A stretch of DNA of 64,000 nucleotides from a candidate division Kazan bacterium RIFCSPHIGHO2_01_FULL_44_14 (GTDB lineage: Bacteria > Patescibacteriota > Kazan-3B-28): NCBI GenBank assembly GCA_001771185.1, contig METB01000001.1, positions 439,200-503,199 of the forward strand. The letters are read 5' to 3'. How positions within the stretch are numbered: the stretch's first letter is position 1; each line of letters opens with the position of its first letter. A program made the translations under genes and the position numbers. A model generated the notes under the pieces. The model worked only from the letters and a program-made list of their open reading frames with translations. It did not search any database and had not been told where the DNA came from. Shown here piece after piece: positions 39,272 through 64,000 of this stretch.

Positions 39272-39275
39272 AAAA

Positions 39276-42816: not shown

Positions 42817-43046
42817 ACGAGGATTTTGAACAGAGTAAAGCGAATGTTGTCAGCATTTCGGTAGCCCAACATCAAGCGTATATGCGTTGGGGTCTTCAGT
42901 CTCTCGTCTTTGAGGGGCTTAAAGACGAAGGGTTTATCCGACAGACCGATGGGAAGATGTTGGCAAAGAAGCTGGTTTCCTCCGATCAGGATGAGATTAC
43001 AGACTTGCCCAATTTTCAGCCCCATTTACTGCAAGTCCCGTCTTAA
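42813..43046 (+). CDS. Small hypothetical protein translationally coupled (ATGA) to the proteasome-like gene
   Basis: 77-aa ORF with a 4-nt overlap. Confidence 0.35.
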   Translation: MNEDFEQSKANVVSISVAQHQAYMRWGLQSLVFEGLKDEGFIRQTDGKMLAKKLVSSDQDEITDLPNFQPHLLQVPS

Positions 43047-43108
43047 GGATTTGTAAGTCTGCTCTAATTTGTTTCCAATCAAGAGTTCTAAGTTTGTCCA
43101 CGAGGGGG

Positions 43109-43143
43109 AGCCAAATGAAAACGAGTAAAGTGACCGAGGTGCC
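43109..43143 (+). repeat. 35-bp direct repeat R1 (candidate attL), containing a truncated 13-codon copy of the small ORF at 63742-63840
   Basis: AGCCAAATGAAAACGAGTaAAgTGACCGAGGTGCC compared with 63736-63770 AGCCAAATGAAAACGAGTcAAaTGACCGAGGTGCC, 33 of 35 identical. Confidence 0.7.
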
Positions 43144-43194
43144 CCAAAGCGCCTAGTTCGGTCTGGGAGCCAAAAAATCCACATTGGCCCAAGA

Positions 43195-43225
43195 AAATAA
43201 CCCCTTCGCAGGGGTTGTTTTTATG
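43195..43225 (+). terminator. Rho-independent terminator
   Basis: aaccccttcgcaggggtt followed by gtttttat. Confidence 0.6.
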
Positions 43226-43232
43226 GTAAGCT

Positions 43233-43385
43233 ATGGGTGTTGTTCCACAATCTTGAAAGTTTGGATATCCAATTTTCCTAGGGATATAGGGATGTTAGTA
43301 CCGATAATCGCGGTTAAAAACGGGCAGATGCTCGAGTGCCGCGATTATCTACTCCTAGGAGCAAGAGATTGTGGAACAACCACCA
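43233..43385. repeat. Nested inverted-repeat structure (outer ~19-bp arms gtgttgttccacaatcttg / caagagattgtggaacaac; inner 11-bp arms gataatcgcgg / ccgcgattatc)
   Basis: The arms are directly visible. It lies just inside the candidate element boundary and upstream of gene 43447. Confidence 0.6.
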
Positions 43386-43446
43386 CGAGGTCTGCCCCTT
43401 TTTGATTTATATAATAATCGGCAGGTCATCGGGTAGGGAATCCACG

Positions 43447-44517
43447 ATGGCTATTATTGTTTCTAAATCAGGAAAGAACGCTCAAAAAGTTGAGCGATCC
43501 AGAATCGAACAAGAGGATTATCTCCAACAATATACACTGGATAATCCGGAGGTGATTCCACTTTACGATATCAAAGAAGATATCAGGTTACTAATTCTCG
43601 CTCGAGAGTTTTCCACTAATAGCGGTCCCATTGATGCCATTGGTATCGATAAGGATGGCGAGATTTATATTGTAGAAACTAAGCTCTATAAGAATCCGGA
43701 CAAACGAACAGTCGTTGCCCAAGCTCTCGACTATGGAGCGGCCCTTTGGCGACACTCCAATGATTTTGATTACTTTATCGATACTTTGAATCAGAGTGTC
43801 CAGAAGGTGTTCGGAATGACTCTCAACGACAAGATTGAAGCTTTCTTCGGTTTATCACAAGAGGAGATAGCTGGACTACTTGAGGGGGTCAAAAAGAACC
43901 TAGCCGATGGAGTGATGCACTTCGTCGTTCTGATGGATTCTCTAGATGATCGGCTGAAAGACTTAGTTCTATATGTTAATCAGAACAGTCAGTTTGATAT
44001 CTACATTGTTGAATTGGACTACTACAAGCACGAAGAGTATGAGATTATCATTCCCAAGATTTACGGGGCGGAGGTTAAAAAAGATGCCGCCATCCAGAAA
44101 AGTAGTGGGTCTAGGCAACAGTGGTCTGAGGAAGAGTATCTATCTAGCGCTAAAGCTACCATAGACGGCAAGGTCTATCCGGCATTCAGTAAATTATATG
44201 AAGCTTGTAAGACCTCAGCCGATGGGATGCGATTTGGCACTGGCACGGTCAGAGGTTCAGTCGGTCCATTCTATAACTCTATCTCTCGGCGAACTATTTT
44301 TACTCTTTATACCGACGGCAAGTTAGCTTTCAATTTTGGCTGGTTGAATGAGCCCACTTCAGCGATTGAGTTTAGAGATAGATACTTCAACGCGCTGAAG
44401 TCCTTGGGGCTGAAATTGGAAGAGAGCGATATTTTGGTCTATCCGCATTTTCCGATCAATCAGTGGTCGCCTTTGGTAGAGAAAATCATCCAAGTGGTTA
44501 AGGAGACTGCGGTATGA
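43447..44517 (+). CDS. PD-(D/E)xK (restriction-endonuclease-fold) nuclease-like protein with a C-terminal domain of unknown function
   Basis: IDAIGIDKDGEIYIVETKLYK gives a D...ExK arrangement of NucS/Shedu/Mrr type. 356 aa. Confidence 0.5.
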   Translation: MAIIVSKSGKNAQKVERSRIEQEDYLQQYTLDNPEVIPLYDIKEDIRLLILAREFSTNSGPIDAIGIDKDGEIYIVETKLYKNPDKRTVVAQALDYGAALWRHSNDFDYFIDTLNQSVQKVFGMTLNDKIEAFFGLSQEEIAGLLEGVKKNLADGVMHFVVLMDSLDDRLKDLVLYVNQNSQFDIYIVELDYYKHEEYEIIIPKIYGAEVKKDAAIQKSSGSRQQWSEEEYLSSAKATIDGKVYPAFSKLYEACKTSADGMRFGTGTVRGSVGPFYNSISRRTIFTLYTDGKLAFNFGWLNEPTSAIEFRDRYFNALKSLGLKLEESDILVYPHFPINQWSPLVEKIIQVVKETAV

Positions 44518-45230
44518 AGAAAATCAAATCCGTCGAGCAATATGGTCAGTTATATATGAAACGATTTCTCCAGGACCAAATTGCTCACAAGGATGCTATT
44601 TATGATGACTGGCGAGAGGCCTTGGAGTTCTTGTTTTCCAAGGTCTTTTATCGGGGTAGGCGAGATGAGTTGTCAGAGAGATTTATGTGGGCAACTCTTA
44701 AAACTCTAAAAGAAATTGAGTTAGATCCGGACTATAACAAGCAATTACTTGATAATCGCCTACAATCCAATGGGGTGAACAATCACAAGGATCGCAAGAT
44801 GGTCTGCGAAGTTCTGGATTTCGTCTTTAATCTTCCCACTCCTTACGGTCGCAATATCGTTAAATACACCATTGAGCGGATTAAAAATGGGAAGATTCTA
44901 GACATCTTTAATGAACTGAATACGATTTATGCCATCGGAGACAAGCTATCCTCGTTCTATATCCGAGATGTGGCGTTGGTATTTGATTTAGAGGATAAGC
45001 TACTAGCAGATGACTTCAAATATTGTCAGCCTATCGATACATGGGTGAAACAAGTAGCGGTTAAGCTGGACCTTATTGCTCCCCAAGAAGGGGATGTGGC
45101 AACAATCAAGTCAGCCATTATAGATGCGTGTCGAGGGGCAAATGTATCACCCCTACTTTTTAACGCAGGGGCATGGATGGTCGGAGCTAAATCCTTCGAT
45201 TTGTTGATAGAGCGGTTTTCTACACAATAA
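44514..45230 (+). CDS. Hypothetical protein, possible helix-hairpin-helix DNA-binding module (LNTIYAIGDKLSSFYIRDVAL)
   Basis: ATGA overlap with the upstream nuclease-like gene. 238 aa. Confidence 0.4.
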   Translation: MKKIKSVEQYGQLYMKRFLQDQIAHKDAIYDDWREALEFLFSKVFYRGRRDELSERFMWATLKTLKEIELDPDYNKQLLDNRLQSNGVNNHKDRKMVCEVLDFVFNLPTPYGRNIVKYTIERIKNGKILDIFNELNTIYAIGDKLSSFYIRDVALVFDLEDKLLADDFKYCQPIDTWVKQVAVKLDLIAPQEGDVATIKSAIIDACRGANVSPLLFNAGAWMVGAKSFDLLIERFSTQ

Positions 45231-45258
45231 ACAATCCTACTGTTTCTGTTGGAGCTTA

Positions 45259-46638
45259 CTAGCGGGCTGAAGTGGGTTCATCGATAAGCTTGGTTAGGGT
45301 AGTTTTCTTATTGTCTTGTAGTGTCAGTTTGCCTTGGTTCAATATTACTTGGCTTTGGATGTTTGCTAGTATCTCTCGCTTTTGTTCATTACTACCTTCC
45401 CGGAGAATGTACTTGGCATACATTTTCAGGTCCACTCTTGGCATTTTGGAGGTGGCGGAATCTATCCCCAGCACTCCCTGCGTGAATTTATTGTAGCGGT
45501 CTATCTCTTCCTGCAACCTATCCTTCATCCCGATTCGATCTAGAGTCAGTTTATCGATAATCTCCACAAATTGTTCAATGAGGTCTGCCTCTCTGACATA
45601 AGGTTGTTTGCACCCGATTCTCTTGCTATCTGTGCAGTGATAGTAGACATGGCGATTCATCTCACCATTCTTTAATCGCTTGAATTTTTCTTCAGCACTG
45701 ACTCCGGCCCCGCACTGACCGCAGGTCATCATCCTTGTAAAGGCGAAGCACTTTTCACCATGACGGCCATGTGGGGGTTTAGAAATTCTAACTTGCACCT
45801 CATCAAATAACTCTTTGTTAATTAGTGGTTCGTGTTTGCCTTGGTAGCTTCCTTCGCCATAGGTATATTCGCCATAGTAGAAGCTATTCTTGAGAGTCAG
45901 AAAGATTGAACTTAGTGCCATCTTCTTGCCGCTTCGAGTCGTGAAGTTAGTTTCGCTATTAAGCCAATCTAAGATGTTCCTGCCGGAGTAGCCATGTTTG
46001 GCCACCTTATTGAAGATCTCTTTAATGGTGGGAGCTCTTTCTTTGTCGACCAAGATCGTGTTGTCGGCATAGTTGTTGAGATAGCCGAGTGGGGCGACTC
46101 CTGGTCGCCAGCCCATCTCACATTTGGTTCGCATCCCTCGTTTAACATTCACGCCCTTGTTATCGTTTTCCAATTTGGCTTGGGAACAGAGAATCATTAA
46201 GAGGAACTTCTCGTTAGGGGAGTTCCGGAATATCTGACCATGGGTTCTGATTTCGTGCAGAAGTCCTTGGTCCATAAGGTCGACCAAAGAGCCAAGGTCT
46301 CCGGCATTACGGCTCAATCGGTCTGGAGCCCATGTCATAATTCCATTGAAATCGCCTTCTCGGATTCTCATCAGAAGCTCAGTAAAGGCGGGTCTTTGGC
46401 CGGAGTCCTTAGCCGAGTGGCTTTCCTTGATAGTCTCTACTATCTCTATCCCATCCCTCTCAGCCATCGCCAACATCTCTTTGATTTGGCTGTCTATGGA
46501 GAGGGCTTGTCGTTCGTCCTGCTCTGAGGACTTACGGGCATAGAGACAGTACTTGGCTCCCTGTGGTTGCTCCATGGCTTCCGAAGACCCCTCGGGAGCT
46601 CCTGGAATCGTCTCGTTTTTCACCATATTTGCCTCCAT
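45259..46638 (-). CDS. Large serine recombinase (second copy, distinct sequence)
   Basis: The resolvase catalytic region CLYARKSSEQDE...DSQ, recombinase domain, and zinc ribbon (CGQCGAGVS...YYHCTD). The N-terminal start is uncertain (MEAN... or MEQP...). Confidence 0.8.
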   Translation of the reverse strand: MEANMVKNETIPGAPEGSSEAMEQPQGAKYCLYARKSSEQDERQALSIDSQIKEMLAMAERDGIEIVETIKESHSAKDSGQRPAFTELLMRIREGDFNGIMTWAPDRLSRNAGDLGSLVDLMDQGLLHEIRTHGQIFRNSPNEKFLLMILCSQAKLENDNKGVNVKRGMRTKCEMGWRPGVAPLGYLNNYADNTILVDKERAPTIKEIFNKVAKHGYSGRNILDWLNSETNFTTRSGKKMALSSIFLTLKNSFYYGEYTYGEGSYQGKHEPLINKELFDEVQVRISKPPHGRHGEKCFAFTRMMTCGQCGAGVSAEEKFKRLKNGEMNRHVYYHCTDSKRIGCKQPYVREADLIEQFVEIIDKLTLDRIGMKDRLQEEIDRYNKFTQGVLGIDSATSKMPRVDLKMYAKYILREGSNEQKREILANIQSQVILNQGKLTLQDNKKTTLTKLIDEPTSAR

Positions 46639-46742
46639 TTGTCTATAGGGCTATATCAAGGGTAAGGATGCCCGAAAATTGGCCAAAGTCCAGTCCCAAA
46701 ACGCTTTATTTTGAGTTATACTAAAGAAGTCAAATAACCCCT

Positions 46743-48980
46743 ATGGAGCTAGCAGACAACGAAAAGCGGGATATTATCAAGTACTTGGAGGCAGGGAAAC
46801 CCCTGCCAGACAAGTACCGCTTTTTGCTATTCGGGGATAAAAATGAGGTAGAGTTGGTCTGGAATGGTAAAACCGACGAGGTTACTAATGTGGCTCTGCC
46901 TTTTCAGGTTATAGAACAGGTGGACGAGGCTAGGAGTGAAAAAGAGGTAAAAATCCAGACGGGTCTATTTGATGAGGGTGGCCGTCAGATTGGAGGTTGG
47001 GTCAATAAGCTGATTTGGGGCGACAATAAGCTCATTCTTTCCAGCTTGAAGAATGGTCCCATCAGGGAAGAGATAGCGAGACAAGGTGGGATAAAACTGA
47101 TTTACATAGATCCGCCATTTGATGTCGGTGCTGATTTTTCTATGGATATTGAGATAGGTGATGAGCAATTTACCAAACAGCCAGGCGTATTAGAAGAACT
47201 GGCGTACAGAGATACATGGGGTAAGGGTGCTGATAGTTTTATCTCTATGATTTATGAGCGTCTAAAGTTGATGAGAGACTTATTGGCCGATGATGGCAGT
47301 ATATATGTGCATTGTGATGACAGATTGAGTGGGTATTTACGACTAGTAATGGATGAAGTTTTTGGAAAAAATAATTTTAGAAATCATATTATCTGGAAAC
47401 GCACCTCTTCACATAATGATTCTAAAAAGATTGGCAAGGTGTCAGATTCAATTTTTTACTACTCCAAGAGTGAAAATGCTATATGGAATCCACAATTTAG
47501 GCCTTACGATCAAACTTATCTTGATAACTTCTATCGGCATATCGAAAGCGACGGTCGTAAGTATCGTCTGCACCAAATAGAACGTAATCCAGCACTAGGT
47601 CTTCGTGAAAATCTAAAGTATGAATACAACAACTACACACCTCGGTATGGCTGGATGGTGGAGAGAGGGAAGCTTGAGGAACTTGATAAAAAGGGTATGC
47701 TGGTTTGGTCAAAAAACGGTAAACCCCAAAGGAAAATCTATATAGGCGAGGACACTGAAGGACAGCCGATTCATGATATTTGGGATGATATATCAGCAGT
47801 TGGTAGCCAGAGTAAAGAGAAGACTGATTATCCAACACAAAAACCAGAGTCATTGCTTGCAAGGGTTATTAGAACCTCTACTAATGAAGGTGACATCGTT
47901 GCCGACTTTTTTGTGGGTTCTGGTACTACTTTGTCCGTTGCCGAAAAATTGGGACGTAAATGGATTGGTAGTGATTTGGGAAAATTCTCCATTCATACTG
48001 CTCGCAAAAGAATGATTGGTGTTCAGCGGGAACTTAAAAAAGAGAATAAGGGTTATCGAGCGTTTGAGATTCTTAATCTTGGTAAATATGAGAGGCAATA
48101 TTATGTGGGAGCCAATCCCGATTTAAGAGATGAAGAAAAACAAAGACAGCTTGACCAAAAAGAGCAAGATTTCGAGAAGCTTATATTGGGCGCCTACAAG
48201 GCAGAGCCGGTGGACGGCTTCAAAACATTCAGAGGGAAGAAGGCCAGCCGATTGGTATCCATTGGGGCCATTAACTTACCGGTTACTCGTAGGTTTGTGG
48301 AAGAAGTCGTAGAAGAATGTCTCGAGAAGAAAATCACCAAGGTAGATATTTTAGCCTTTGAGTTTGAGATGGGTCTATTTCCCAAAATGCAGGAAGAGGC
48401 CAAGGACAAAGGTATTGATATGGCTCTTAAATATATTCCTCGAGATGTGTTTGACAAAAGAGCTATCGACAAAAATCAAGTTGTCTTCCATGATGTTTCC
48501 TTTATCGAGGTCAGGCCTATTATCAAGGGTAAAAGTGTGGCAATCGAGCTAACTGATTTCTCGGTTTTCTATAATCAGGATTCTGTCGCCCAGGTTGAAT
48601 CTCTACTCAAGAATGGTAACAATAAGATTGTGGTTGAAAATGGTCAGATTATTAAAGTGCTAAAAGACAAGGATGGCATAGTCACTCAGGAGGTACTAAC
48701 TAAGAAGTGGTCTGATTGGATCGACTACTGGTCTGTAGATTTCAATTTCGAGAGCAAGCAAGAGATTATCCGTATCCAGAAAGATGGTAAAACTGAGGAG
48801 GTTTGGACGGGAGATTATATATTTGAAAACGAATGGCAATCTTTCAGGACCAAAAAGGACCGTAAGCTGGATTTTGTAAGTGTTGCGACTGAAATGACAA
48901 AAGGTCGACATAAGGTTGCTATAAAAGTGGTCGATATCTTTGGCAATGACACTATGAAAGTTATGGAGGTAAATATCTAA
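46743..48980 (+). CDS. Type III restriction-modification methyltransferase (Mod-like, beta-class N6_N4 MTase) with a long C-terminal extension
   Basis: Motif IV IYIDPPFD comes ~265 aa before motif I FFVGSGTT, with a TRD-like region between. 745 aa. Confidence 0.8.
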   Translation: MELADNEKRDIIKYLEAGKPLPDKYRFLLFGDKNEVELVWNGKTDEVTNVALPFQVIEQVDEARSEKEVKIQTGLFDEGGRQIGGWVNKLIWGDNKLILSSLKNGPIREEIARQGGIKLIYIDPPFDVGADFSMDIEIGDEQFTKQPGVLEELAYRDTWGKGADSFISMIYERLKLMRDLLADDGSIYVHCDDRLSGYLRLVMDEVFGKNNFRNHIIWKRTSSHNDSKKIGKVSDSIFYYSKSENAIWNPQFRPYDQTYLDNFYRHIESDGRKYRLHQIERNPALGLRENLKYEYNNYTPRYGWMVERGKLEELDKKGMLVWSKNGKPQRKIYIGEDTEGQPIHDIWDDISAVGSQSKEKTDYPTQKPESLLARVIRTSTNEGDIVADFFVGSGTTLSVAEKLGRKWIGSDLGKFSIHTARKRMIGVQRELKKENKGYRAFEILNLGKYERQYYVGANPDLRDEEKQRQLDQKEQDFEKLILGAYKAEPVDGFKTFRGKKASRLVSIGAINLPVTRRFVEEVVEECLEKKITKVDILAFEFEMGLFPKMQEEAKDKGIDMALKYIPRDVFDKRAIDKNQVVFHDVSFIEVRPIIKGKSVAIELTDFSVFYNQDSVAQVESLLKNGNNKIVVENGQIIKVLKDKDGIVTQEVLTKKWSDWIDYWSVDFNFESKQEIIRIQKDGKTEEVWTGDYIFENEWQSFRTKKDRKLDFVSVATEMTKGRHKVAIKVVDIFGNDTMKVMEVNI

Positions 48981-49594
48981 TGACTGACTATGCTATCAAT
49001 TTGGAAGAGACTCTATCTATCAAAGATAGTTGGGGATATGAAACTGAAGTAGATGCAGTTATTTATCGCAACCAATTTGATAAATATTATCAGGCATACT
49101 CAAAGTCTGGTTTGCAGGAAGACCTAATGTTTAGTTTTATATTCCTTCAGATTTATATAGAGTGTTTTTTGCATGGCTGTATGAGGAAAATTGTTGAAAT
49201 GGAATTCAAGCCGCCTCGTATAAATGTGTACAAAGATTGGACTGGAGGAGAAAAGCGTTCGGTTCAAGACAAATTAGATGCCTTTGTGGGACTCTTTTTT
49301 AGTCTCATAACTGACAAGATCAACGATGATAAAGATGAAATTAAGAGACTCTTCGGTAGCATTAGCTATATCCGCAACCTACTAGTTCATGGCCACAAAG
49401 TTGCAATGTGGTCGAATTCTGATGGCTACTCTGGTATCAGTGAGGCTAAAGCATTCTTAACCTCAGATCAGTTGGGCAACACAGTCAAGGAGGCAAATAA
49501 ACTTGGGGCATTGTGGAATCAGTTATTGGACACAATTTTGCCACAACTCAAAGCATTACAAAGAGTGAGTGATTTTAAGTATAAAGAAATATAA
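48980..49594 (+). CDS. HEPN-like protein (Rx4H motif SYIRNLLVHGH) inserted between mod and res
   Basis: TAATG overlap with the mod stop, and 6 nt before the res start. It is all-alpha by composition. The HEPN assignment rests only on the Rx4-6H motif. Confidence 0.4.
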   Translation: MTDYAINLEETLSIKDSWGYETEVDAVIYRNQFDKYYQAYSKSGLQEDLMFSFIFLQIYIECFLHGCMRKIVEMEFKPPRINVYKDWTGGEKRSVQDKLDAFVGLFFSLITDKINDDKDEIKRLFGSISYIRNLLVHGHKVAMWSNSDGYSGISEAKAFLTSDQLGNTVKEANKLGALWNQLLDTILPQLKALQRVSDFKYKEI

Positions 49595-49600
49595 TTCGCC

Positions 49601-52291: not shown

Positions 52292-52298
52292 ATGGAAT

Positions 52299-54014: not shown

Positions 54015-54034
54015 TAACGTAACTAAGTAAATCA

Positions 54035-55519: not shown

Positions 55520-55647
55520 CTCCATACTTTGTGCAACAGCTCTGGCGGTGTAAAATAGGGCCAGTGAAACGATTTAGGAGACAATAAGCAAACGCAACCA
55601 AGTCGGGTCCGGAAACGGACGAGACGGAATGGTTGTGTTTTTTGTAT

Positions 55648-55722
55648 GCCGAGGTAGCTCATTGGTAGAGCGAGAGCTTGAAAAGCTCTGCGTAGGAGGT
55701 TCAATTCCTTCCCTCGGCACCA
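55648..55722 (+). tRNA. tRNA-Phe (anticodon GAA)
   Basis: GCCGAGG acceptor, D-arm GCTCATTGGTAGAGC, anticodon loop TTGAAAA, T-loop GGAGGTTCAATTCCTTC, CCA encoded. Confidence 0.8.
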
Positions 55723-55724
55723 AT

Positions 55725-55799
55725 GCCCCCGTAGGCTAACGGATAGACCAAGTCGCTTCTATCGACAGAGTGAGGGTTCGATTCCTTCCGGGGGCACCA
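55725..55799 (+). tRNA. tRNA-Arg (anticodon UCU), weak D-stem
   Basis: GCCCCCG/CGGGGGC acceptor, anticodon loop CTTCTAT, T-loop GAGGGTTCGATTCCTTC, CCA encoded. It lies 2 nt after tRNA-Phe. Confidence 0.65.
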
Positions 55800-55825
55800 G
55801 TTTCATTTTGTCAAAGTTTATTTTT

Positions 55826-57448
55826 TTACCACCTTCTGGAGGCGCGTCCCCAGCCGTGAGGGTCATTTTCCTCTAGATTATCGAGTAATCCACCTGATCG
55901 TCCTCTCCGTTTTCTGGTCTCGGTTTCTAGAGTTTCCCTCTCCCAGCCAGTAGTGCCATCAGGGGAGTAACAAAGATCACCATTTCTATCTCGGTATACG
56001 ATACCGATATTACAGTTAATCTTGTCATCCGCCATTACCCTAAGCACTAGCATTGTAAACGCATCGGCTAAGTCATCGTATCTTTCTCGGCCAAAACCCG
56101 TAATCTGATGAATCAACTCTTCTGCTCCTTTACGAGGGAACAATACTTTACCAGTTTGAATCAGGGCAGTGGTGGTGGACAGACGAGACCGTTTATCATT
56201 CTTACTGGTAAATTCCTCGGCGGTGATACCTTGGGTTTTAAGGTGTTGACCGAAGGCCGCTTGGTAAGCCGTGCTGTCGAAACAGAGTTTTACCGTGTAA
56301 TGTTGTTTAGTCCAAGACTTGTAGGATTCGATAACGGTTTGCACCGATGTCGGGAAGTCCATCCGCCGATTAATTGGGCCGGGCAGAATGTTGATTTGTA
56401 AACCATTCCTGCCACTATAAACCAGTGCTGTAACCACGGCAGTGTAGTTAGCTGATTCTTTTTCCGAAATCGCTAGATCAACCGCCATCGAAACATATCG
56501 CAATTTGGGGTCGTTCATACCCGGGGTTTGGTTTGGCAACTCATCATAGTAATGTAGCCACTCGGGATGCACAACTCGTTCGGCATCGGAAATAATCTTC
56601 AACAGATATTCTCGGCTCCAATCGATATCATCTGCTACCGTGCGCTTTTCATCATTGATGGCATCTTCGTCGGGATACTTGCCTGGCCAGAGACAATTGC
56701 CGTCGTAATCGATGAGGGGGTAGAACTCAAACACTCCGTCTCGTTTACTCTCTCGGATTTCTTTGCGTAATCGCATAATTAACGAGTCGTCGTGCAGTAA
56801 GTTTCCGATGACGACAATATTGGTGCGCCGGTCGCCAGTCGGAATTAGATCGCCCTTAAACCAGCGATAAGTTTTATCTCGGCTATCTTGGGTGGCGACA
56901 GAGTTCAAATCTTCGACATCATCACAGATGATTAAATCTGGTCGATAGGTGCCATACCTGATGCCTCGGATACCTTCTTCAACCGATGCCACTACAATTC
57001 TAGCTTTGTATTTAGACAGCTCAATCGTGCCACCACCCCACTTGGTGTTGCTACTTCGGAAAGGTCCCATATCTGCTTTAAGCAGAGTGTTGTCGGTTAG
57101 CTCCGCCTTCAAGCTTTCCAGTAGTCGTCTCGCCATGTCTTGAGTTTTGCTGGTGATAAGAATGTGCTTTTTTTGGAGCTTGCCCATAATCGCCCACAGA
57201 GGATAGGACAAGCTAATTAGGGTGCTCTTGCCCGATGCCCTAAAGGCACAAATTACTAGTGTCTTTATTTTAGTGTCTTGAGTTAGCTCGAAGATCTCTT
57301 TCTGGAAATCGGCGGTTTCGTATTGCACATAGTGGGGGAGATAGATACTGAAAAACATCAGATGAGCGTCCCTGGCCGCTTCAATCCGCATCCCCTGGTT
57401 GTTGATAATCTGACTAATCCACTTATCTCGTTCGTCATTGTTTAACAT
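55826..57448 (-). CDS. Phage terminase large subunit
   Basis: N-terminal ATPase with Walker A (AFRASGKST) and a C-terminal RNase-H-like nuclease region. 540 aa. Confidence 0.75.
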   Translation of the reverse strand: MLNNDERDKWISQIINNQGMRIEAARDAHLMFFSIYLPHYVQYETADFQKEIFELTQDTKIKTLVICAFRASGKSTLISLSYPLWAIMGKLQKKHILITSKTQDMARRLLESLKAELTDNTLLKADMGPFRSSNTKWGGGTIELSKYKARIVVASVEEGIRGIRYGTYRPDLIICDDVEDLNSVATQDSRDKTYRWFKGDLIPTGDRRTNIVVIGNLLHDDSLIMRLRKEIRESKRDGVFEFYPLIDYDGNCLWPGKYPDEDAINDEKRTVADDIDWSREYLLKIISDAERVVHPEWLHYYDELPNQTPGMNDPKLRYVSMAVDLAISEKESANYTAVVTALVYSGRNGLQINILPGPINRRMDFPTSVQTVIESYKSWTKQHYTVKLCFDSTAYQAAFGQHLKTQGITAEEFTSKNDKRSRLSTTTALIQTGKVLFPRKGAEELIHQITGFGRERYDDLADAFTMLVLRVMADDKINCNIGIVYRDRNGDLCYSPDGTTGWERETLETETRKRRGRSGGLLDNLEENDPHGWGRASRRW

Positions 57449-57848
57449 TTTTCCCTCCTATCGGTTTACCTTTATATATTCCAGCCAATGACAGAGCTTT
57501 TTTGATGAGAGCCCGTTGGGCTGGTGTTAACGGACTATCTTTGTGTTCCACTTTCGCCATTACTTGCAATTTCTCGGCATAAGACGAATGTCGATTGCGG
57601 AGCCAAAACATCAGGGCAGTCATGTTTTGGTTCTTAATTGCCGTCAATAATTGAGACTCCGCAAGGTCGTTGATCAGGTCGCATCCCTCTGCCAACGCCT
57701 TGTCCGCTTGCTGGGCAAAGGTTTTACTTTCTCGTTTCCACCGATAGAAGGTCGCTCGGCTGATGCCAGTTTTCTGGCAAGCGGTCTGAACAATAGGTGT
57801 TCGGCGGAGAATTTCCAGTACTTCTTCTTTTTGGCTCATTGGTTTCAT
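57435..57848 (-). CDS. Putative terminase small subunit / HTH DNA-binding protein
   Basis: HTH (ACQKTGISRATFYRWKRE) immediately upstream of, and overlapping, the large-terminase gene. Confidence 0.5.
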   Translation of the reverse strand: MKPMSQKEEVLEILRRTPIVQTACQKTGISRATFYRWKRESKTFAQQADKALAEGCDLINDLAESQLLTAIKNQNMTALMFWLRNRHSSYAEKLQVMAKVEHKDSPLTPAQRALIKKALSLAGIYKGKPIGGKNVKQ

Positions 57849-59170
57849 CGTACTTTTACTCCTTTCTGCCCAGTCAGTTTTTCCCATCTATTCCGGATTA
57901 CACAAGCGTATGTAGGAGATTTTTCGGAAATATAACATTTTCTTCCGAGTTTTTCACAAGCGATTAAAGTTGAACCTGAGCCACCGAATGGTTCAATCAC
58001 CCAGTCACCACGCTTGGTCAACACCTTGATGTAGGGGATTAATATCTCAATTGGCTTAACGCCAAAGATAATCCCTTGACCAGAACTCTTCTCATCCGCC
58101 ACATTGAACTCGATGAAGTCAGTCGGCTGGTACTTCTTGCCTTTTTCATACCCCTCCCATTGGGGTTTACCTTGGATGGCAAACAACGCTGTTTCGTATT
58201 CGTTTTGGAGTAGCTCATCCTCTGGCTCTAAGTTGAAGGATGGTTCACCGCCTTGTCCGACCATGGCGATATCGTGTTTGCTGAAAAACTTATATTTAGC
58301 CGCGAATCCTTGGTTGCGATTGGGAGTGTGCCAAACGATCATGTTTTTTACTTTCCAATGTTTGGCCATCTCACCCCAAATGGTGGGGATATTCTTCCAG
58401 TTCTCATAACATAGGATTGAAAAGTTGGGAGAAGCCATTTTAGCGATGTTCGTCATCCAAAGCTCCGTAAAGTTATCCGGCAACTCATCGGTCTCCAAAT
58501 ACTTGCGGTCTCGCTTGAACCCGAATCCCTCAGTCGGTTTGCCATGCTTCTTCTTGCCTTTGAGATAATCCAAAATGTACGGGGGGTCCGTGAGGCAGAG
58601 AGATGGCGGTGTTTCGCAGACCAGTCCAGTAATATGAGCTTCGTCAGTTGAGTCGCCACAAGCAAGATAATGATTACCTAATTTCCAGAGGTCGCCCTTT
58701 TGGATGTCTATATCGGTGATACCTATCTTGTCTAACTCTTTTTGTAGGTCGAACACTTCGGGGGTCTCGTCGATGCCAGTAATCTCGTCCATTTCTTCAC
58801 TGGAAAAACCAACATCAGTTAGCAGCGCTGGATCAAATTCTGCCAGCAAGTCTAGGTCCCAAGCGCCAAGGTTGCGGTTTAACCTCAAGTTCAGTTCTCG
58901 TTCACGCTCTATCTCGGGGATGTTCACAAACACTACAGGCACTTCTTTGATGCCGAGGTCTTTGGCCACCTTCAAGCGGAAATGACCCCCTATAATAATG
59001 TTCTCTCTCCCGGGAGCATTATTGCAGAGGATGGGATCGACCATCCCAAACTTACGGACGCTGTCAGTCAGCTGTTGAATAGCTGACTCATCCCAACGAC
59101 GAGGATTATATGTGCTCGGCTTGAGCTCGGAAACCGGCAGGTAGCGAACGGCCAGATTATCTTTATCCAT
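57845..59170 (-). CDS. ParB-like nuclease domain fused to a beta-class DNA methyltransferase
   Basis: N-terminal ParB/Srx motif (IIGGHFRL), central DPPY (CLTDPPYILDY), C-terminal motif I (IEPFGGSGST). A fusion common in phages. Confidence 0.75.
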   Translation of the reverse strand: MDKDNLAVRYLPVSELKPSTYNPRRWDESAIQQLTDSVRKFGMVDPILCNNAPGRENIIIGGHFRLKVAKDLGIKEVPVVFVNIPEIERERELNLRLNRNLGAWDLDLLAEFDPALLTDVGFSSEEMDEITGIDETPEVFDLQKELDKIGITDIDIQKGDLWKLGNHYLACGDSTDEAHITGLVCETPPSLCLTDPPYILDYLKGKKKHGKPTEGFGFKRDRKYLETDELPDNFTELWMTNIAKMASPNFSILCYENWKNIPTIWGEMAKHWKVKNMIVWHTPNRNQGFAAKYKFFSKHDIAMVGQGGEPSFNLEPEDELLQNEYETALFAIQGKPQWEGYEKGKKYQPTDFIEFNVADEKSSGQGIIFGVKPIEILIPYIKVLTKRGDWVIEPFGGSGSTLIACEKLGRKCYISEKSPTYACVIRNRWEKLTGQKGVKVR

Positions 59171-59260
59171 AGTATTTTTTTAAAAATATAACTGACCCAA
59201 TCGTAGAATCAAAAAGAACTCCCAAGGGGGAGTTCTTTAATGTTCCGGATGTGTTATCTG

Positions 59261-59800
59261 TTATTTACTCGGTTGTTCCGGTTCGTGCCATTCGATGCCG
59301 AAGTCCTTGAGAAGCTTTTTTATTTCGAACGGAGACATCTCCAAGTGGTCTATAATCTGTAAAGTGTGTTTGGTACAAACAGGCATAAAATAATGCCTGA
59401 ATGCTTTCCAATACTTCATCTTGCGAAAGGCCTCGTCGATTGGGACTTCGGTAGCTTCATCAATAGTCTCAGATATATCATCCTTGCTTACTTTGTCCCC
59501 TGTACGTCGATTCAGTAAGTAGTTCATCAATCTATCGGGGAGGGATTGATAATGAAACTTTTGGATCTCCTTGTCTATCTCTAATGCGTCAATAACTAAG
59601 AAAAGTTTGCATCCTCTCTTGACCAACTTAACCATTGCTGGTTTCCCATCAGTAGCTTCTTCGACGGAACGATAGATAATAACTGGTGGATGGTTCGGTT
59701 CGTAGCAAGCCTTTTTTATATTGCCCCGTTGAGCCCATAAGATTGTCTGGATAAAGACCTCGAGCTCTTTTTTGTGGTTTGGTTTTGTGGGTACCTTCAT
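59261..59800 (-). CDS. Hypothetical phage-associated protein
   Basis: 179-aa ORF with an RBS-like ggagga upstream. Confidence 0.4.
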   Translation of the reverse strand: MKVPTKPNHKKELEVFIQTILWAQRGNIKKACYEPNHPPVIIYRSVEEATDGKPAMVKLVKRGCKLFLVIDALEIDKEIQKFHYQSLPDRLMNYLLNRRTGDKVSKDDISETIDEATEVPIDEAFRKMKYWKAFRHYFMPVCTKHTLQIIDHLEMSPFEIKKLLKDFGIEWHEPEQPSK

Positions 59801-60059
59801 TTTGTCCTCCTAATCTTAAGCTGATATAAAAAATCCCTAAATCGAAAGCAGTTACATCAGTAACCTGACTTTCGCTTTTCTAGGGGTTTCCTTACTCAGC
59901 GAAAGAAACAGACAGTTTCTTCAATATCGAATTGTGACTCTACATTGAGATTGTACAACCGCATCATAATGGATGTCAAATGGCCGTCCGTGACAAGGTT
60001 ATCACCTAGAGGCAAGAGTATAATGGTTAAGAGCAGATGCTCTTAATTTTTTGAGACTT

Positions 60060-62504
60060 ATGATGTTTGGAACTGTAGATATTAAAATCAGACCCCTGAA
60101 ATTCGCTTGCCTCGTAGACCCTAAAAGCTCCAAGCAGACACGAGCGGCTATCAGGCTGTGTTCCAGTCTCTGGGGAGGGGCTTATTTTCCCATTATCCCT
60201 ATTTATAAAAAGATGCCGACATCGTGGCGGGGAGACCAATTGAAATTTGGCCCAGCGAGCAAAGTAGTCACAGGATATATCGAGGCATTTGACCCGGACA
60301 TTTTAATCCAATTTTCCGACAAGATACCAAAATACATAACCAAATTGGGACTTGAAATTGTTCAACCGAATGAAGTATGGTCACCATTAAAAGACGACTA
60401 TTCGCATCCACGTTTCGGGATAGGAATTTTTGAAATTCTTAGCGACGTTTTCCGGGAATATTTTAAGTACCAAGTAAAGTACCCAGTAAAGGTGTTCTTG
60501 CCCAAAATACCTACTCAACTTTCTCTATTTTGGGCTAGCTTGTTTGGAGAGCTGTCATCAGATATTACAGCAATAGTAGATCGGGATTATTCTGAGCCAC
60601 TTGCGGTGGAGAAAGTGAGTAATGTCATAGATCGTCTGTCGGAAGTAATGGCTTCTGATGGTATATTCCCAAGACGCTTAACGCAGTGGGGTTTGACTCC
60701 GTATGGTGGGTCTGCTCGTAGAAATGCCGCTGTCTTTTTTATGGATGCTACCAAAGTGGAGGACATAGTAGATTTTTGGAATTTGCGAGCTATTGGTATG
60801 GATGTCATGCCAGTCCCCAAACAGCTTTCTGACAATTCACAGCTACACGACTTGGTAGCTAATTTTTTCAAAAATCATCGGATCCCATGGAAACACAACA
60901 AGGAAGTTTGTGATTATGCGTCCATTATTAGGGCTGGGCACTGCACGATGGAAGAAGTGCAGGAATACGCTAAGACCTTCCAATTGCAACCCGAACCCAA
61001 CGATCCTTCTAGGGATGGATTCTTTTCGTTACAACACTGGTATCCCCGAATTTGGGATGAGTGGGCTAGGGATAGGGATGGGGCTAACCCAAGAGATATA
61101 TTAGGCGAAGAAGAGCATAGTATCGATATTTCTGATGCCAAGGCATTAAAATTACACTTGCCTGCGATTTGGCCTAAGTTTGCTTTTAGAAAGTTCGGGT
61201 ATGGCGACCCAAGGTGTGTTAATGAGGTGAGTTTGCGATTTTACGGTGCTGAAGAATATATAGCCGAGGCTTTTCCCAAATTATCCGGAGACAACTTTAA
61301 CCGAGCAATCTCTGGGAGATTTTCGATGATGGGAGACTGGCGAATAGGAAGGAATGGATTGGTCAGGCTCGTGAAGGATGATCGAATTGACACTAGAGAT
61401 ATTCCTGCCGCTGAAGATATTATGTTGGCATGGATTAAAGATCAGGGATGGGATGATCCTAAGTTATCTACTCCCGGTCTTTTGGCCAAGCGAATATATG
61501 AAATATTAGAAGGTCATCCGAAGTCTTTGGCAAATGAAAAACTTCTTGGTCTGCTGGAGCATATGAACGGCGGGCTAGTTAAAAAAGATGGTACTCCAGC
61601 AGAAAAGACCAAACTTAGTAATGAACGAGAACTCTCTTCTGCTGAGCTTAAGGAGCGATTGGGCGTGGGTCTATATGAATATCTTGTTGGGCGTGGGATT
61701 TTTAAGATAGGATTGCGAATACAATGTCCAAATTGTTCCAGAAACTCCTGGTTTCCAATGGACAACTTGCGAGATCAATTAACCTGTCCGCTGTGTCTAT
61801 CCGTCTTCCCAGCCATCGGGCACGTTGATGATAAGAGCAGTTGGTGCTATAAAACATCGGGTCCTTTCAGTGTGCCTGGATATGCAGACGGAGCCTTTGC
61901 GGTGTTGCTTGCCGTAGATTTTTTCGATGATCAATTGTCTAATTTACACACAACTCCCATTCTTAGCTTTACTGCCAAAGCATCAGGGAAGAAGGATTTA
62001 GAGGCAGATTTTGCTTTATTGTGGCAAGAAGCTGCCTATGGGGAGAATGAGGAGGGGGTTATATTTGGCGAATCAAAAACTTATGGACAGTTCAAGAAGA
62101 AAGATTTTGATAGGATGCGATTTTTGGCAAAAACATTTCCGGGAGCAATTTTGGTGTTTAGTACACTGCGGAAATCGTTGACTCATGAGGAGCTGACAGC
62201 AATAGCAAGTATTGCCAAAAGAGGGCGAAGATACTGGAAGGCTGATCGTCCTATCAACCCGGTATTAGTCTTAACGGGGGCAGAGATGTTGGCACACTAC
62301 CGACCTCCGTATTGTTGGAGCGAGACTTTGCAGAAGAAATTTGGACATCTCAGTGGTCTGCTAAGCATTTGCAACGCAACCCAGCAAATTTATCTAAATT
62401 TGCCATCTTGGAGTACGGAGTGGCGTGAGAAGCATGAAAAAAGATTACAGAAAAAGACAAAAAATACTCGTAAGACTAAGGCGACAAAATGTAAGGGCGA
62501 ATAG
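60060..62504 (+). CDS. Large hypothetical protein (about 815 aa) with a C4 zinc ribbon and a C-terminal PD-(D/E)xK-like motif
   Basis: CPNCSRNSW...CPLC zinc ribbon at ~aa 560. DLEADFALLWQE...VIFGESKTYG (D...ExK) near the C-terminus. No NTPase motifs. The start is uncertain (the annotated ORF opens at TTG 60051; the first ATGs are at 60060 and 60063). Confidence 0.5.
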   Translation: MMFGTVDIKIRPLKFACLVDPKSSKQTRAAIRLCSSLWGGAYFPIIPIYKKMPTSWRGDQLKFGPASKVVTGYIEAFDPDILIQFSDKIPKYITKLGLEIVQPNEVWSPLKDDYSHPRFGIGIFEILSDVFREYFKYQVKYPVKVFLPKIPTQLSLFWASLFGELSSDITAIVDRDYSEPLAVEKVSNVIDRLSEVMASDGIFPRRLTQWGLTPYGGSARRNAAVFFMDATKVEDIVDFWNLRAIGMDVMPVPKQLSDNSQLHDLVANFFKNHRIPWKHNKEVCDYASIIRAGHCTMEEVQEYAKTFQLQPEPNDPSRDGFFSLQHWYPRIWDEWARDRDGANPRDILGEEEHSIDISDAKALKLHLPAIWPKFAFRKFGYGDPRCVNEVSLRFYGAEEYIAEAFPKLSGDNFNRAISGRFSMMGDWRIGRNGLVRLVKDDRIDTRDIPAAEDIMLAWIKDQGWDDPKLSTPGLLAKRIYEILEGHPKSLANEKLLGLLEHMNGGLVKKDGTPAEKTKLSNERELSSAELKERLGVGLYEYLVGRGIFKIGLRIQCPNCSRNSWFPMDNLRDQLTCPLCLSVFPAIGHVDDKSSWCYKTSGPFSVPGYADGAFAVLLAVDFFDDQLSNLHTTPILSFTAKASGKKDLEADFALLWQEAAYGENEEGVIFGESKTYGQFKKKDFDRMRFLAKTFPGAILVFSTLRKSLTHEELTAIASIAKRGRRYWKADRPINPVLVLTGAEMLAHYRPPYCWSETLQKKFGHLSGLLSICNATQQIYLNLPSWSTEWREKHEKRLQKKTKNTRKTKATKCKGE

Positions 62505-62509
62505 ATATC

Positions 62510-63424
62510 ATGGATCAAAAGCGTAGCCAGAAGCACCATTATTTGCCAGTTAACTATCTTAATGGTTTTACTGACGACCAAGGTCTTTTCTTCGTTTATG
62601 ATAAAAAAGAGGACCAAATTGTTCAGAAGGCGGTCACGCCAAAGTCGGTATTTTTTGAGAACAATCTCAACACCATAGCATTAAAAGATGAGTGTTCAGA
62701 TTTCCTTGAGGGTCTCTATACCCAAACGGAGAATATATTGTGGGCTCCTTTTGAAACTATCAGACGATCCAAGTCTACTGATCAGATCCAACCTCTAGAC
62801 AGAATGCATTTGTACCTTTTTCTTACATTGCTGTACTGGAGGTTGCCCAGCAATTTCAATCAGGTAAAGAGCTTTTCAAGTAAAGCATTTGCCCACAATA
62901 ATGAAATCGATTACTTTCAGCTAAAATCTCGTAATGGGGATGTCTCCAATGAGATGATTGAGCAGATGAGAGGGTCAGAGTCGTTTAATAAATCAGTAAG
63001 ACTGATACTTCCATTTGCTCCATTCCTTAAGAACAAGGAGTGGTTTTTGTCAGTTGTGAAATGGAAGTTCGTCTATATAGAGCCGAATACGACAGCTTTT
63101 ATTACTGGAGATAATCCGATTATTCTCAAGGATGAGAGTGGTGAGGCCGTTGATCCGCTGGGCGAATTTATTTTTCCGATATCTAGTAATATTCTGTTAG
63201 CGAATTGCGACCATGCTATCAAAAAGGAGTTGGATCCAGCATTCGTTCTACAGGCCAACATTGCAATCATGGAAAATGCCAAGCGGTTTGTAATTTGCCG
63301 GAGCAAAGAATTTCTTCAGGGGTTAGTTAAATACTACAAAATATATAGTCAATACGGGAAAACTCCAACGATAGCGCCAGAGGTATTTGCTATGCTTATA
63401 GATACAGAGCTGGAGTATAAATAG
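62510..63424 (+). CDS. DUF4238-like protein (N-terminal HHYLPxxYLxxF motif)
   Basis: QKHHYLPVNYLNGF matches the recalled DUF4238 N-terminal signature. 304 aa, beginning 6 nt after the upstream gene. Confidence 0.45.
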   Translation: MDQKRSQKHHYLPVNYLNGFTDDQGLFFVYDKKEDQIVQKAVTPKSVFFENNLNTIALKDECSDFLEGLYTQTENILWAPFETIRRSKSTDQIQPLDRMHLYLFLTLLYWRLPSNFNQVKSFSSKAFAHNNEIDYFQLKSRNGDVSNEMIEQMRGSESFNKSVRLILPFAPFLKNKEWFLSVVKWKFVYIEPNTTAFITGDNPIILKDESGEAVDPLGEFIFPISSNILLANCDHAIKKELDPAFVLQANIAIMENAKRFVICRSKEFLQGLVKYYKIYSQYGKTPTIAPEVFAMLIDTELEYK

Positions 63425-63425
63425 T

Positions 63426-63611
63426 ATGCAACTCACTGATAAAGAAATAGTCGAATTTCAGCGAATTTACGAGAAGGAGTTTGGAGTCAAAATTAGCAAG
63501 CAGGATGCTCTTGAACAGGGTACGAAGCTACTAGTTTTGATGAAAGCCATTTACCAACCCATCCCATCACAAGGCCATAAAATCCCTCAAAAATCCAGTC
63601 CAAAACAGTAG
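63426..63611 (+). CDS. Small hypothetical protein (61 aa), third gene of the module
   Basis: It starts 2 nt after the DUF4238-like stop. No motif. Confidence 0.3.
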   Translation: MQLTDKEIVEFQRIYEKEFGVKISKQDALEQGTKLLVLMKAIYQPIPSQGHKIPQKSSPKQ

Positions 63612-63735
63612 GCCCTGCCACTGTCTCATTTGTCTCATTTTCTCCTATGGGTTCTACAACTGACCCACTTGCCCGAGCTCCTTTTCAAAAGCCCCAAATT
63701 ATCTCCTTAGGAATGCAATCCGAACCGAGCTGTTG

Positions 63736-63770
63736 AGCCAAATGAAAACGAGTCAAATGACCGAGGTGCC
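63736..63770 (+). repeat. 35-bp direct repeat R2 (candidate attR)
   Basis: See R1. This copy starts an intact 33-codon ORF (63742-63840, MKTSQMTEVPISVNLPLAEAIEREYQQVQLLL). Confidence 0.7.
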
Positions 63771-63840
63771 TATTTCGGTCAATTTGCCGTTGGCTGAAGC
63801 GATTGAGCGAGAATATCAGCAGGTTCAACTGCTTCTGTAA
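63742..63840 (+). CDS. Tiny ORF (32 aa) whose 5' end is duplicated at 43115-43156; candidate integration target
   Basis: ATG at 63742. Followed by a terminator at 63841-63872 (ccgtctccttgggaaagaggcgg, then T7). Confidence 0.25.
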   Translation: MKTSQMTEVPISVNLPLAEAIEREYQQVQLLL

Positions 63841-64000
63841 CCGTCTCCTTGGGAAAGAGGCGGTTTTTTTAAGTGACAATAGTTCGGACTTCCTGTAGCC
63901 AACGGAGCCAACTAAGACAGTTATCGAACTCCTCCTTTGGGGTGACGAAAGTCGAAATGACCTAGATGGGTTGTTTTGGTTTACTCCTTAAAATGGTTCT

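Follow-up and report, generated by a model that had tools for sequence, protein, structure and literature searches.

The 64,000-nucleotide stretch examined in this work (contig METB01000001.1, positions 439,200 to 503,199; hereafter the window) is chromosomal DNA of a bacterium of the candidate phyla radiation (CPR) and carries, between two copies of a direct repeat, a segment of about 20.6 kb designated island 2. Our data favour the view that island 2 is an integrative element driven by its own large serine recombinase (LSR), LSR2, and that it belongs to a family, widespread in CPR bacteria, whose members insert at the 3' end of tRNA genes and have accumulated in tandem, in this case behind tRNA-Asn; we place the probability of this reading at roughly 0.7. 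It is based on junction sequences and break points observed in several genomes, on a conserved gene backbone and on near-identity of elements between divergent hosts. An earlier reading of the letters alone (the sequence-only reading) had already proposed that the repeat copies mark the ends of a serine-recombinase integrative element of this size, which was supported, and that this element had inserted into a small gene and partially duplicated it, which was not. Comparators, designated by L numbers, were metagenome-assembled genomes and contigs.

The repeat itself is real. Its pattern matched the window exactly twice, at 43109-43143 and 63736-63770, with no match expected from 100 shuffles. 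One further base was added by the repeat finder (family D4), yielding 36 nt with 34 identical positions, and similarity extended for about 10 nt more when a 10-nt indel was allowed (GGTGCC[CCAAAGCGCC]TAGTTCGGTC versus GGTGCC TATTTCGGTC). Alignment of both copies with their flanks resolved the junction into the hexamer GAGCCA, which is identical to the last 6 nt of tRNA-Asn(GTT), and 30 nt of element left terminus, referred to below as the core. Beyond the left copy, the left terminus of island 2 was conserved as far as position 43168 (segment B, about 25 nt) and preceded a terminator-like hairpin at 43202-43214 with a T-run. Rfam searches at the gathering threshold and at E<=1 returned nothing credible for either repeat region.

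The origin of the core was clarified by other genomes. Both in L027 and in L024, tRNA-Asn ending in GAGCCA was contiguous with AA(T/C)AAAAACGAGTAAAGTGACCGAGGTGCC, after which B, the terminator and the structured spacer followed as in the window. This left terminus was followed in L027 by genes for a NucS-like protein (87% amino acid identity), the 238-aa protein h238 (80%) and LSR2 (89%); the L024 contig stops about 330 nt into the element, before its first gene. Over these 330 nt the left end in the window was 98.2% identical to that of L024, and it was 91% identical to that of L027. Because the same sequence directly adjoins tRNA-Asn in these two genomes, the left copy of the window is interpreted as the tRNA-proximal junction (attL) of island 2. 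Left ends of the family began immediately after the terminal CCA of tRNA-Asn (L019, L024, L027) or tRNA-Trp (L087, L088), or after a conserved right arm described below (L021). The elements of L087 and L088/L090, with 67-68% LSR2 identity, come from other CPR genomes, where they were seated at the tRNA-Trp 3' end; the junction reads ...CCCTGCCA and then GCAAG(T/G)GCG(C/G)G(A/T)GT..., in which the core can still be recognised. In contrast, L020, L023, L028 and L029, related species that have tRNA-Asn without an LSR2-type element adjoining it, showed trailers unrelated to the core. Since a homologous core follows tRNA-Trp elsewhere, and since trailers are unrelated where no such element abuts tRNA-Asn, the core appears to be element-borne; on these comparisons, the 30 nt after GAGCCA are to be regarded as the conserved left terminus of the element family and not as host sequence.

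These observations bear directly on a more classical explanation, according to which the 36 nt would be native to the region downstream of tRNA-Asn and matched by a copy in attP, as in islands of tyrosine integrases, so that a single integration with a crossover anywhere in the block would have generated both copies. The 94% identity of the two copies is compatible with it, as is the tRNA-Asn of L019, which is contiguous with sequence resembling the right copy of the window and its flank. However, an LSR2 homologue (80%) lies behind that sequence in L019, at the distance typical of the family, and a right arm closes the unit; for this reason the sequence represents the end of an element and not an empty site. 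The unrelated trailers of Kazan genomes lacking an adjoining LSR2-type element and the core behind tRNA-Trp in other lineages also argue against a native block, as does the absence of any tyrosine recombinase domain from the ORFs (open reading frames) of the window between 34 and 64 kb (Pfam, PHROGs). We consider this explanation unlikely.

At its other end, island 2 is bounded by the conserved right arm (A arm, Table 1), further copies of which terminate units on their right side in L001, L007, L019, L021, L028 (three times) and L090. At least five different sequences followed its terminal GAGCCA, among them the core, a variant core (core'), and an LSR1-type island. The arm of L090 ended in CCCTGCCA, matching its tRNA-Trp target, and was again followed by core; this arm-side core and the tRNA-side junction were identical at 36 of 44 nt, from CCCTGCCA to CCCTAAAA, and at 47 of 82 over a wider span. 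The last 6-9 nt of the A arm co-varied with the target tRNA (Asn versus Trp) and its first 31 nt were invariant, the sequence common to all junctions being limited to 6-7 nt, (G)GAGCCA. Together with its right flank, the right repeat copy matched the L019 element over about 55 nt of the left end of the latter; the comparison identifies this copy as the end of the A arm abutting what appears to be the left terminus of another family member that has been mostly deleted. The two positions at which the repeat copies differ follow the same division: the left copy displays A..G and then B, as do L027 and L024, and the right copy C..A and then the variant B', as does L019. Because mismatches and flanks track these genomes, the copies can be assigned to two sub-lineages of left termini. 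The use of B and B' as markers of element and host, respectively, was ruled out because the L019 element has B' at its own left end.

The 36-nt repeat is therefore best described, with good probability, as GAGCCA followed by the left termini, homologous to one another, of two family members lying side by side, and no duplication of a target gene would be involved. Its length had been taken in the sequence-only reading as a sign of a different or decayed integrase. This argument does not hold, as 30 of the 36 nt are an element terminus doubled by the tandem arrangement and all junctions share no more than (G)GAGCCA. Nor is there decay to be seen: the LSR2 ORF is intact with all three LSR domains, and in other genomes close homologues are found equally far from this terminus. 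More generally, a long direct repeat beside a serine recombinase can stem from tandem elements with homologous ends instead of target duplication.

Several additional features of the arm and its surroundings were recorded. Within the A arm, the first 31 nt (63615-63645), CTGCCACTGTCTCATTTGTCTCATTTTCTCC, consist of tandem TGTCTCATT, and they were identical between the tRNA-Asn elements of Kazan (L001, position 14526) and the tRNA-Trp element of L090 (position 4661, minus strand), the recombinases of which are only 68% identical. Such conservation suggests a protein-binding or otherwise functional site unrelated to crossover. Folding of five units of A arm and core by RNAalifold gave a weak structure, for which the covariation term was positive (penalising), and no convincing hairpin for the arm, and in view of this result an RNA nature of the arm is not claimed. 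Its interpretation as a degenerate piece of tRNA or tmRNA was dropped, as there is no T-arm and ARAGORN found nothing in it. A promoter (TTGTCT-18-TATAAT) can be read in some copies, and the copy in the window fails a consensus scan; this is retained as a weak idea only. Outside the arm, 140 nt past the right repeat copy, the orphan 15-mer TAGCCAACGGAGCCA shares a similar upstream flank with its counterpart in L026. It is probably another junction scar, an assignment kept tentative since it relies on a single 15-mer and a similar flank.

The small gene invoked by the sequence-only reading corresponds to ORFs that do exist. At the right copy, an ATG at 63742 opens a frame of 32 codons plus stop (end 63840), followed by a hairpin and seven T residues at about 63841-63868; the hairpin was read from the sequence and missed by a simple terminator scan, owing to its 9-nt loop or a mismatch. 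The left copy opens a truncated version of 13 codons (MKTSKVTEVPQSA*). This pair is what would be expected if insertion had taken place within a small protein-coding gene, with duplication of the 5' end of that gene, by means of an integrase of another type or since decayed. Yet the start codon was replaced by ATA or ACA in L019, L024, L026 and L027, neither frame nor length was conserved, and no conserved ORF with an intact start was found in these related genomes. The 13-codon form occurred in L007 downstream of an A arm, and the repeat sequence was contiguous with tRNA-Asn in relatives (L027, L024). With LSR2 intact in its three domains and its homologues in the same position in related elements, insertion into a small gene is scarcely credible; from these comparisons, the tiny ORF is a fortuitous product of the junction sequence and no gene. 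A minus-strand gene fragment across the repeat (HLGHLTRFHLAQQLG...) was also considered and rejected, its frame being broken between the window and L007.

LSR2 is the presumed integrase of island 2, judging from its domains and its fixed place near the left terminus. More than 8000 homologues were found in CPR at E<=1e-30. It is 28% identical to LSR1, the recombinase of the neighbouring island 1, and the context of its catalytic serine, YARKSSEQ, aligns with LARVSTEEQ of LSR1. In the model that we propose, attP would consist of the A arm, the last 6-9 nt of which copy the tRNA 3' end (GAGCCA), joined to the core (AATGAAAACGAGT.AA.TGACCGAGGTGCC...). The LSR would recombine attP with the 3' end of the tRNA gene, with a crossover dinucleotide presumably in or beside GAGCCA, and the tRNA would be regenerated. 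The products would be a core placed directly after the tRNA (attL) and an A arm ending in GAGCCA at the far end (attR), and the duplication would be limited to 6-7 nt, in keeping with a serine recombinase. Newcomers would enter the tRNA-proximal junction and move older elements outward, and the terminase module of the element may play a satellite-like role in packaging.

Tandem junctions could also arise without a serine recombinase, by RecA-dependent recombination of the Campbell type between the core (about 36-46 nt) of an incoming circle and the core of a resident remnant. This route would account for entry beside a resident without any attB; the near-identical block is, as far as can be judged, close to the minimal length for RecA recombination, and tandem junctions do resemble attP. 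It fits less well with the LSR1 island and other units, which break exactly after GAGCCA in contexts devoid of longer homology (tRNA versus A arm), or with the encoding of a site-specific enzyme at a conserved, fixed position, and the pattern of the two mismatches shows no hybrid core. We regard RecA-dependent entry as distinctly improbable.

Several points nevertheless weigh against integration by LSR2 at the tRNA end. Sites of LSRs have imperfect inverted half-sites of about 20-25 bp on either side of a short common core; around GAGCCA, visual inspection gave no more than weak dyad symmetry, and ACCGAG, the most evident flanking repeat, is direct and not inverted. Canonical LSRs recombine only attP with attB. 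The tRNA-core junction is formally an attL, so that a newcomer could insert beside a resident element only if the trailer half-site were loosely specified or if another route, such as occasional homologous recombination, were open to it. Conservation of the A arm spans about 126 nt, more than an LSR half-site needs by a wide margin, so something else acts there. The tRNA-Phe gene lies inside island 2, and a cell that lost the element would die if the genome had no other copy. Within the same population, neither an excised circle nor an empty site was found, and look-ups of the exact DUF4238, proteasome-like and NucS-like proteins showed all 18-22 contigs with flanking genes to be occupied. Finally, misassembly at repeats cannot be fully excluded because the comparators are metagenome-assembled genomes and contigs. 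In related searches, a codon-degenerate scan for the core gave one match among metagenome contigs (L007) and none among viral or genome contigs, two A-arm patterns matched nothing in viral contigs, and a look-up of P0008 found nothing on record. L007 was ruled out as a circle: it contains a related right end, with A arm, core and B beside a ZIP transporter gene.

The gene content listed in the sequence-only reading (serine recombinase, restriction-modification and nuclease genes, two tRNAs, terminase genes and a ParB-methyltransferase) was found to be correct. A backbone comprising h179, the ParB-methyltransferase, the small and large terminase subunits (TerS and TerL), cargo, LSR2, a small ORF and the NucS-like gene was common to L087 and L088/L090. 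It was kept in no fewer than five independent elements, in which the stretch from TerL to LSR2 was variable: the module of type III restriction-modification, helicase and nuclease was shared by the window and L091, and other restriction-modification systems were present in L087, L088 and L019. Homologues of the NucS-like protein and h238 occupied the same position in L027 (87% and 80%), L021, L087 and L088, and the packaging-type block (TerL, TerS, ParB-methyltransferase, h179) was also detected in L087, L088/L090, L091 and L102. No virion structural genes (portal, capsid, tail) were identified in island 2 by Pfam and PHROGs, TerL and TerS being the only phage-type matches, and capsid, portal and tail genes were likewise absent from L087, L090, L091 and L102. 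The 817-aa protein had no match in Pfam, PHROGs, PADLOC or PDB sequences, and it could conceivably be a very divergent structural protein. As for the two tRNA genes, none was present at the equivalent place in L091, and none was found inside L087 or L088.

Between the left terminus and the first gene, a structured non-coding region was compared in five elements (window 43228-43446, L027 5030-5256, L021 14612-14856, L087 and L088), for which RNAalifold proposed 58 pairs, 13 of them with compensatory double changes. It had no Rfam match at E<=1. It holds an invariant GAGGTCTGCCC that could pair with GGGCAGA.

Recent exchange between species is indicated because the element was 98% identical where host core genes are only about 75% identical. 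The end of the L024 element was 98.2% identical to that of the window over 330 nt as compared with 68-75% for dnaG and rpoD of the hosts, and the element proteins of L027 were 80-89% identical against 74% for RpoD. This has consequences for yet another explanation, in which nothing would be mobile: the repeat would belong to a dispersed family, and the segment would be a fixed mosaic of a defence island and a dead prophage fragment around the host genes for tRNA-Phe and tRNA-Arg. It is true that A arm and core sequences recur many times, that structural phage genes are lacking, that tRNAs lie inside and that excision products were not seen. However, copies occurred only at unit junctions downstream of tRNAs (exactly two in the window) and were not dispersed, the whole backbone from the left terminus to the ParB-methyltransferase and h179 recurred at tRNA 3' ends in other genomes, and a 98% identity between hosts that are 75% identical is difficult to reconcile with a fixed mosaic, which we hold to be very improbable.

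Island 2 is one of several units behind the same tRNA. From tRNA-Asn to the gene for DUF378, the distance was about 36 kb in this genome (L001 was used beyond the end of the window) against 1.08 kb in L029. The order outward was tRNA-Asn, LSR1 island, LSR2 island, LSR2-type stub, a unit with a diversity-generating retroelement (DGR), a Fic unit and the host genes for Dus and DUF378, those from the DGR unit onward lying beyond the window. Island 1 carries its own recombinase and occupies the space between tRNA-Asn and the left repeat copy. Its left end was homologous to an LSR1-type island of L019 from the base after GAGCCA, the upstream partner there being an A arm, and it was absent from L027 and L024. 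By the order of the units, we infer that island 1 would have inserted later than island 2, parting the left copy from the tRNA. The last 35 or so codons of LSR1 run antisense through the intron end and the 3' exon of tRNA-Asn (34003-34110), so that integration would supply the C-terminal tail of the recombinase. The LSRs of L022, L026 and L102 likewise adjoin a tRNA directly.

Smaller units with similar borders were noted in this and other genomes. In L001, positions 11747-14651 hold the DGR unit (a 300-aa target ORF, bAvd and a reverse transcriptase), which extends from the right repeat copy to another A arm. The protein of the adjacent Fic unit was 93% identical to Fic of L028, where RpoD was 74% identical and where the Fic gene has A arms on either side. 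A 1-kb unit with a Thoeris ThsB-TIR gene was located between the A arm of the L090 element and a shorter A-like arm (3504-4536). About 90 nt after its tRNA-Asn, L029 contains a second copy of the last 11 nt of this gene (CCCCGGAGCCA, 11351-11441), which looks like the mini-scar of a past insertion. The 39-kb contig 3300033402_000781 of IMG/VR (L102/L103) displays two TerL genes, two LSR genes and a capsid-less layout of ParB-methyltransferase, TerS, TerL, cargo and LSR, one of its LSRs abutting tRNA-Ser(CGA).

Table 1. Features of the window, by position, with the evidence or remarks on which each assignment is based.
Feature	Coordinates	Strand	Evidence or remarks
Host genes	1-33278		PGM, TrpRS, LeuRS, DnaE, L19, RNase HII, NusA, ClpC, YchF, EF-P, S18, SSB, S6, DnaG, RpoD
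tRNA-Asn(GTT), presumed integration target	33474-34110	+	exons 33474-33507 and 34070-34110; 3' end GGAGCCA at 34104-34110
Group I intron in tRNA-Asn	33508-34069		about 560 nt, in anticodon loop; Rfam RF00028, 81.2 bits, E 4.4e-19
HNH endonuclease ORF in intron	33544-33870		HNH domain match
LSR1, large serine recombinase	34003-35568	-	Resolvase, Recombinase and zinc-ribbon domains
Island 1	34111-43106		between tRNA-Asn and left repeat copy; flanked by GGAGCCA at 34104-34110 and 43107-43113
Genes of island 1			LSR1, N4/N6 methyltransferase, AlwI-type restriction endonuclease, D12 methyltransferase, two hypothetical proteins, proteasome-like protein, 77-aa ORF (Pfam)
Left repeat copy	43108-43143	+	GAGCCA (displaced tRNA-Asn 3' end, presumed crossover region) and 30-nt left terminus (core) of island 2
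Island 2 (LSR2 island), integrative element	43114-63740		20,627 bp
Structured non-coding region before first gene of island 2	43228-43446	+	RNAalifold; inverted repeat I6
NucS-like/PDC-S11 protein	43447-44517	+	PADLOC PDC-S11, 4e-20
238-aa protein (h238)	44514-45230	+	
LSR2, large serine recombinase	45259-46626	-	Resolvase PF00239 1.3e-19; Recombinase PF07508 2.6e-15; Zn_ribbon_recom PF13408 1.5e-7
Variable cargo of island 2	46743-55519	+	
Type III Mod	46743-48980	+	Pfam, PADLOC
204-aa ORF	between Mod and Res genes	+	
Type III Res	49601-52291	+	Pfam, PADLOC
PIF1-like helicase	52257-54014	+	Pfam
DUF2779/Cas4-like nuclease	54035-55519	+	Pfam
tRNA-Phe(GAA) and tRNA-Arg(TCT)	55648-55799	+	ARAGORN, Rfam; between nuclease gene and terL
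TerL	55826-57448	-	phrog_38, 2e-73
TerS-like helix-turn-helix protein	57435-57887	-	TerS phrogs, about 7e-8
ParB-N6/N4 methyltransferase	57845-59170	-	Pfam
179-aa protein (h179)	59261-59800	-	
817-aa protein	within 60051-63611 (right-end genes)	+	no detectable family
DUF4238 protein	62510-63424	+	
61-aa ORF	63426-63611	+	homologue in L007
A arm, conserved right terminus of island 2	63615-63740	+	about 126 nt; starts CTGCCACTGTCTCATTTGTCTCATTTTCTCC, ends CCGAGCTGTTGAGCCA, mimic of tRNA-Asn 3' end
Right repeat copy	63735-63770	+	last 6 nt of A arm (GAGCCA) and 30-nt left terminus of adjacent degraded LSR2-type element
Remnant of left end of neighbouring element	63741-63868	+	core, variant B', hairpin and T7
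15-mer TAGCCAACGGAGCCA	63896-63910	+	identical to right end of third LSR island type, L026 17611-17625

The host locus was that of other Kazan bacteria. The closest genomes by RpoD belonged to candidate division Kazan (for example CP011216, 83%), and genes identical to those of the window were found on many groundwater contigs from Rifle. Kazan relatives have a common gene order of SSB, S6, DnaG, RpoD, tRNA-Asn(GTT), a variable stretch, Dus, DUF378, RluS4 and DivIC. Once spliced, the tRNA of the window was recognised by ARAGORN as tRNA-Asn(gtt) and matched the tRNA-Asn of L023, which has no intron, at 74 of 75 positions. In most relatives the gene lacks an intron; in L030 and L035, an HNH homologue follows rpoD and ARAGORN detected no tRNA-Asn, which may thus be interrupted by an intron there as well. 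Genes resembling homing endonucleases (GIY-YIG, HNH, LAGLIDADG) are grouped around tRNA genes in this genome. A free-standing GIY-YIG ORF (5360-5623) lies near tRNA-Ala (4964-5038), and a GIY-YIG ORF lies beside tRNA-Asn in L089. The gene for tRNA-Ser(GGA), on the plus strand in most relatives, is here on the minus strand (27595-27684) and is separated from an inverted copy of its 3' half (about 28818-28859) by an ORF resembling helix-turn-helix and LAGLIDADG proteins (27699-28730, minus strand); the arrangement as a whole (27595-28859) looks like the scar of an inversion or insertion.

Gene acquisition in Kazan and other CPR bacteria with tiny genomes is little known. The 36 kb or so collected behind a single tRNA-Asn would correspond to about 5-6% of the genome, when set against the 560-603 kb of complete related Kazan genomes, and include restriction-modification systems, candidate defence genes, a DGR and a Fic toxin, delivered by serine-recombinase elements. 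Terminase genes without a capsid and an over-long conserved arm offer leads to the way in which such elements travel, and the defined att sequences and compact LSRs could serve as integration tools for CPR bacteria.

Comparison with known systems places these elements between several categories. They resemble phage LSR systems of the phiC31, Bxb1, A118 and TP901-1 type in the domain set of LSR1 and LSR2 and in junctions sharing only a short sequence, (G)GAGCCA. Classical phage LSRs, however, integrate complete prophages into protein-coding genes or intergenic sites, whereas the present elements target tRNA 3' ends and have no capsid, portal or tail genes. Phage-inducible chromosomal islands and Staphylococcus aureus pathogenicity islands, being phage satellites, are similar in that they measure 15-20 kb, have the integrase at one end, and carry defence cargo and the packaging gene TerS but no structural module. 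Island 2 differs from them in that it also has genes for a complete TerL and a ParB-methylase; neither a replication nor a regulatory module was recognised in it, and no helper phage is known. Its gene content alone (integrase, TerS and TerL, defence cargo, no capsid) is suggestive of a phage satellite.

Staphylococcal cassette chromosome (SCC) arrays, including SCCmec, are built by the CcrAB serine recombinases, target the 3' end of rlmH (orfX) with repeats of about 15-18 bp and have no terminase module; each element brings a short copy of the target, so that arrays are split by direct repeats, and some units lack a recombinase (pseudo-SCC). The apparent likeness lies in serine-recombinase elements gathered at the 3' end of one conserved gene, and the differences in the tRNA target and the terminase module found here. 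Cis-mobilisable elements (CIMEs), known from the ICESt1/3 family of Streptococcus, are integrase-less units between att sites. Comparable units with att-like bounds (the DGR, Fic, L090 ThsB-TIR and L028 units) lie here next to integrase-bearing elements, although the recombinase class is different and there is no conjugation module. The only hint that such units might be mobilised in trans is the 93% amino acid identity of Fic compared with 74% for RpoD. On a speculative note, and with considerable doubt, the family may be seen as a distinct class of CPR mobile elements, characterized by a serine recombinase, a tRNA 3'-end target, terminase without capsid, a long right arm and a structured non-coding region at the left end, and forming integron-like arrays with exchange in trans of integrase-less cassettes for defence or diversity (DGR, Fic, Thoeris TIR). 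No IntI was found in the island genes, and the junctions between A arm, GAGCCA and core were not attC-like. If true, this would amount to a new kind of phage satellite and a shuttle of defence islands for genomes of about 0.6 Mb.

The closest parallels are the islands defined by Islander and TIGER and the tycheposons, which share integration at tRNA genes, regeneration of the tRNA, outward displacement of older elements by newcomers, degraded units and scraps of tRNA ends, defence or adaptive cargo and some satellite-like units. The displaced tRNA 3' fragment that marks islands of the Islander type was present at the distal end, as GAGCCA (Asn) or CCCTGCCA (Trp). In contrast to these islands, the enzymes here are large serine recombinases in place of tyrosine integrases; no more than 6-9 nt of the tRNA, from the very 3' end including CCA, are duplicated, the fragment usual in tyrosine-integrase islands being much longer; and the units have a long non-tRNA arm (A) and a conserved left terminus and reside in CPR hosts with genomes of about 0.6 Mb. 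The targeting of tRNA genes by islands in general is treated in PMC4383910 and PMC12884075, and the tycheposon preprint on Prochlorococcus describes the same accretion, a minority of tycheposons having a large serine recombinase. A search of the literature found no description of such elements in CPR. The behaviour of the elements is thus ordinary tandem island accretion at a tRNA gene, and what is apparently undescribed is its occurrence in CPR hosts, with serine recombinases and with terminase genes unaccompanied by capsid genes.

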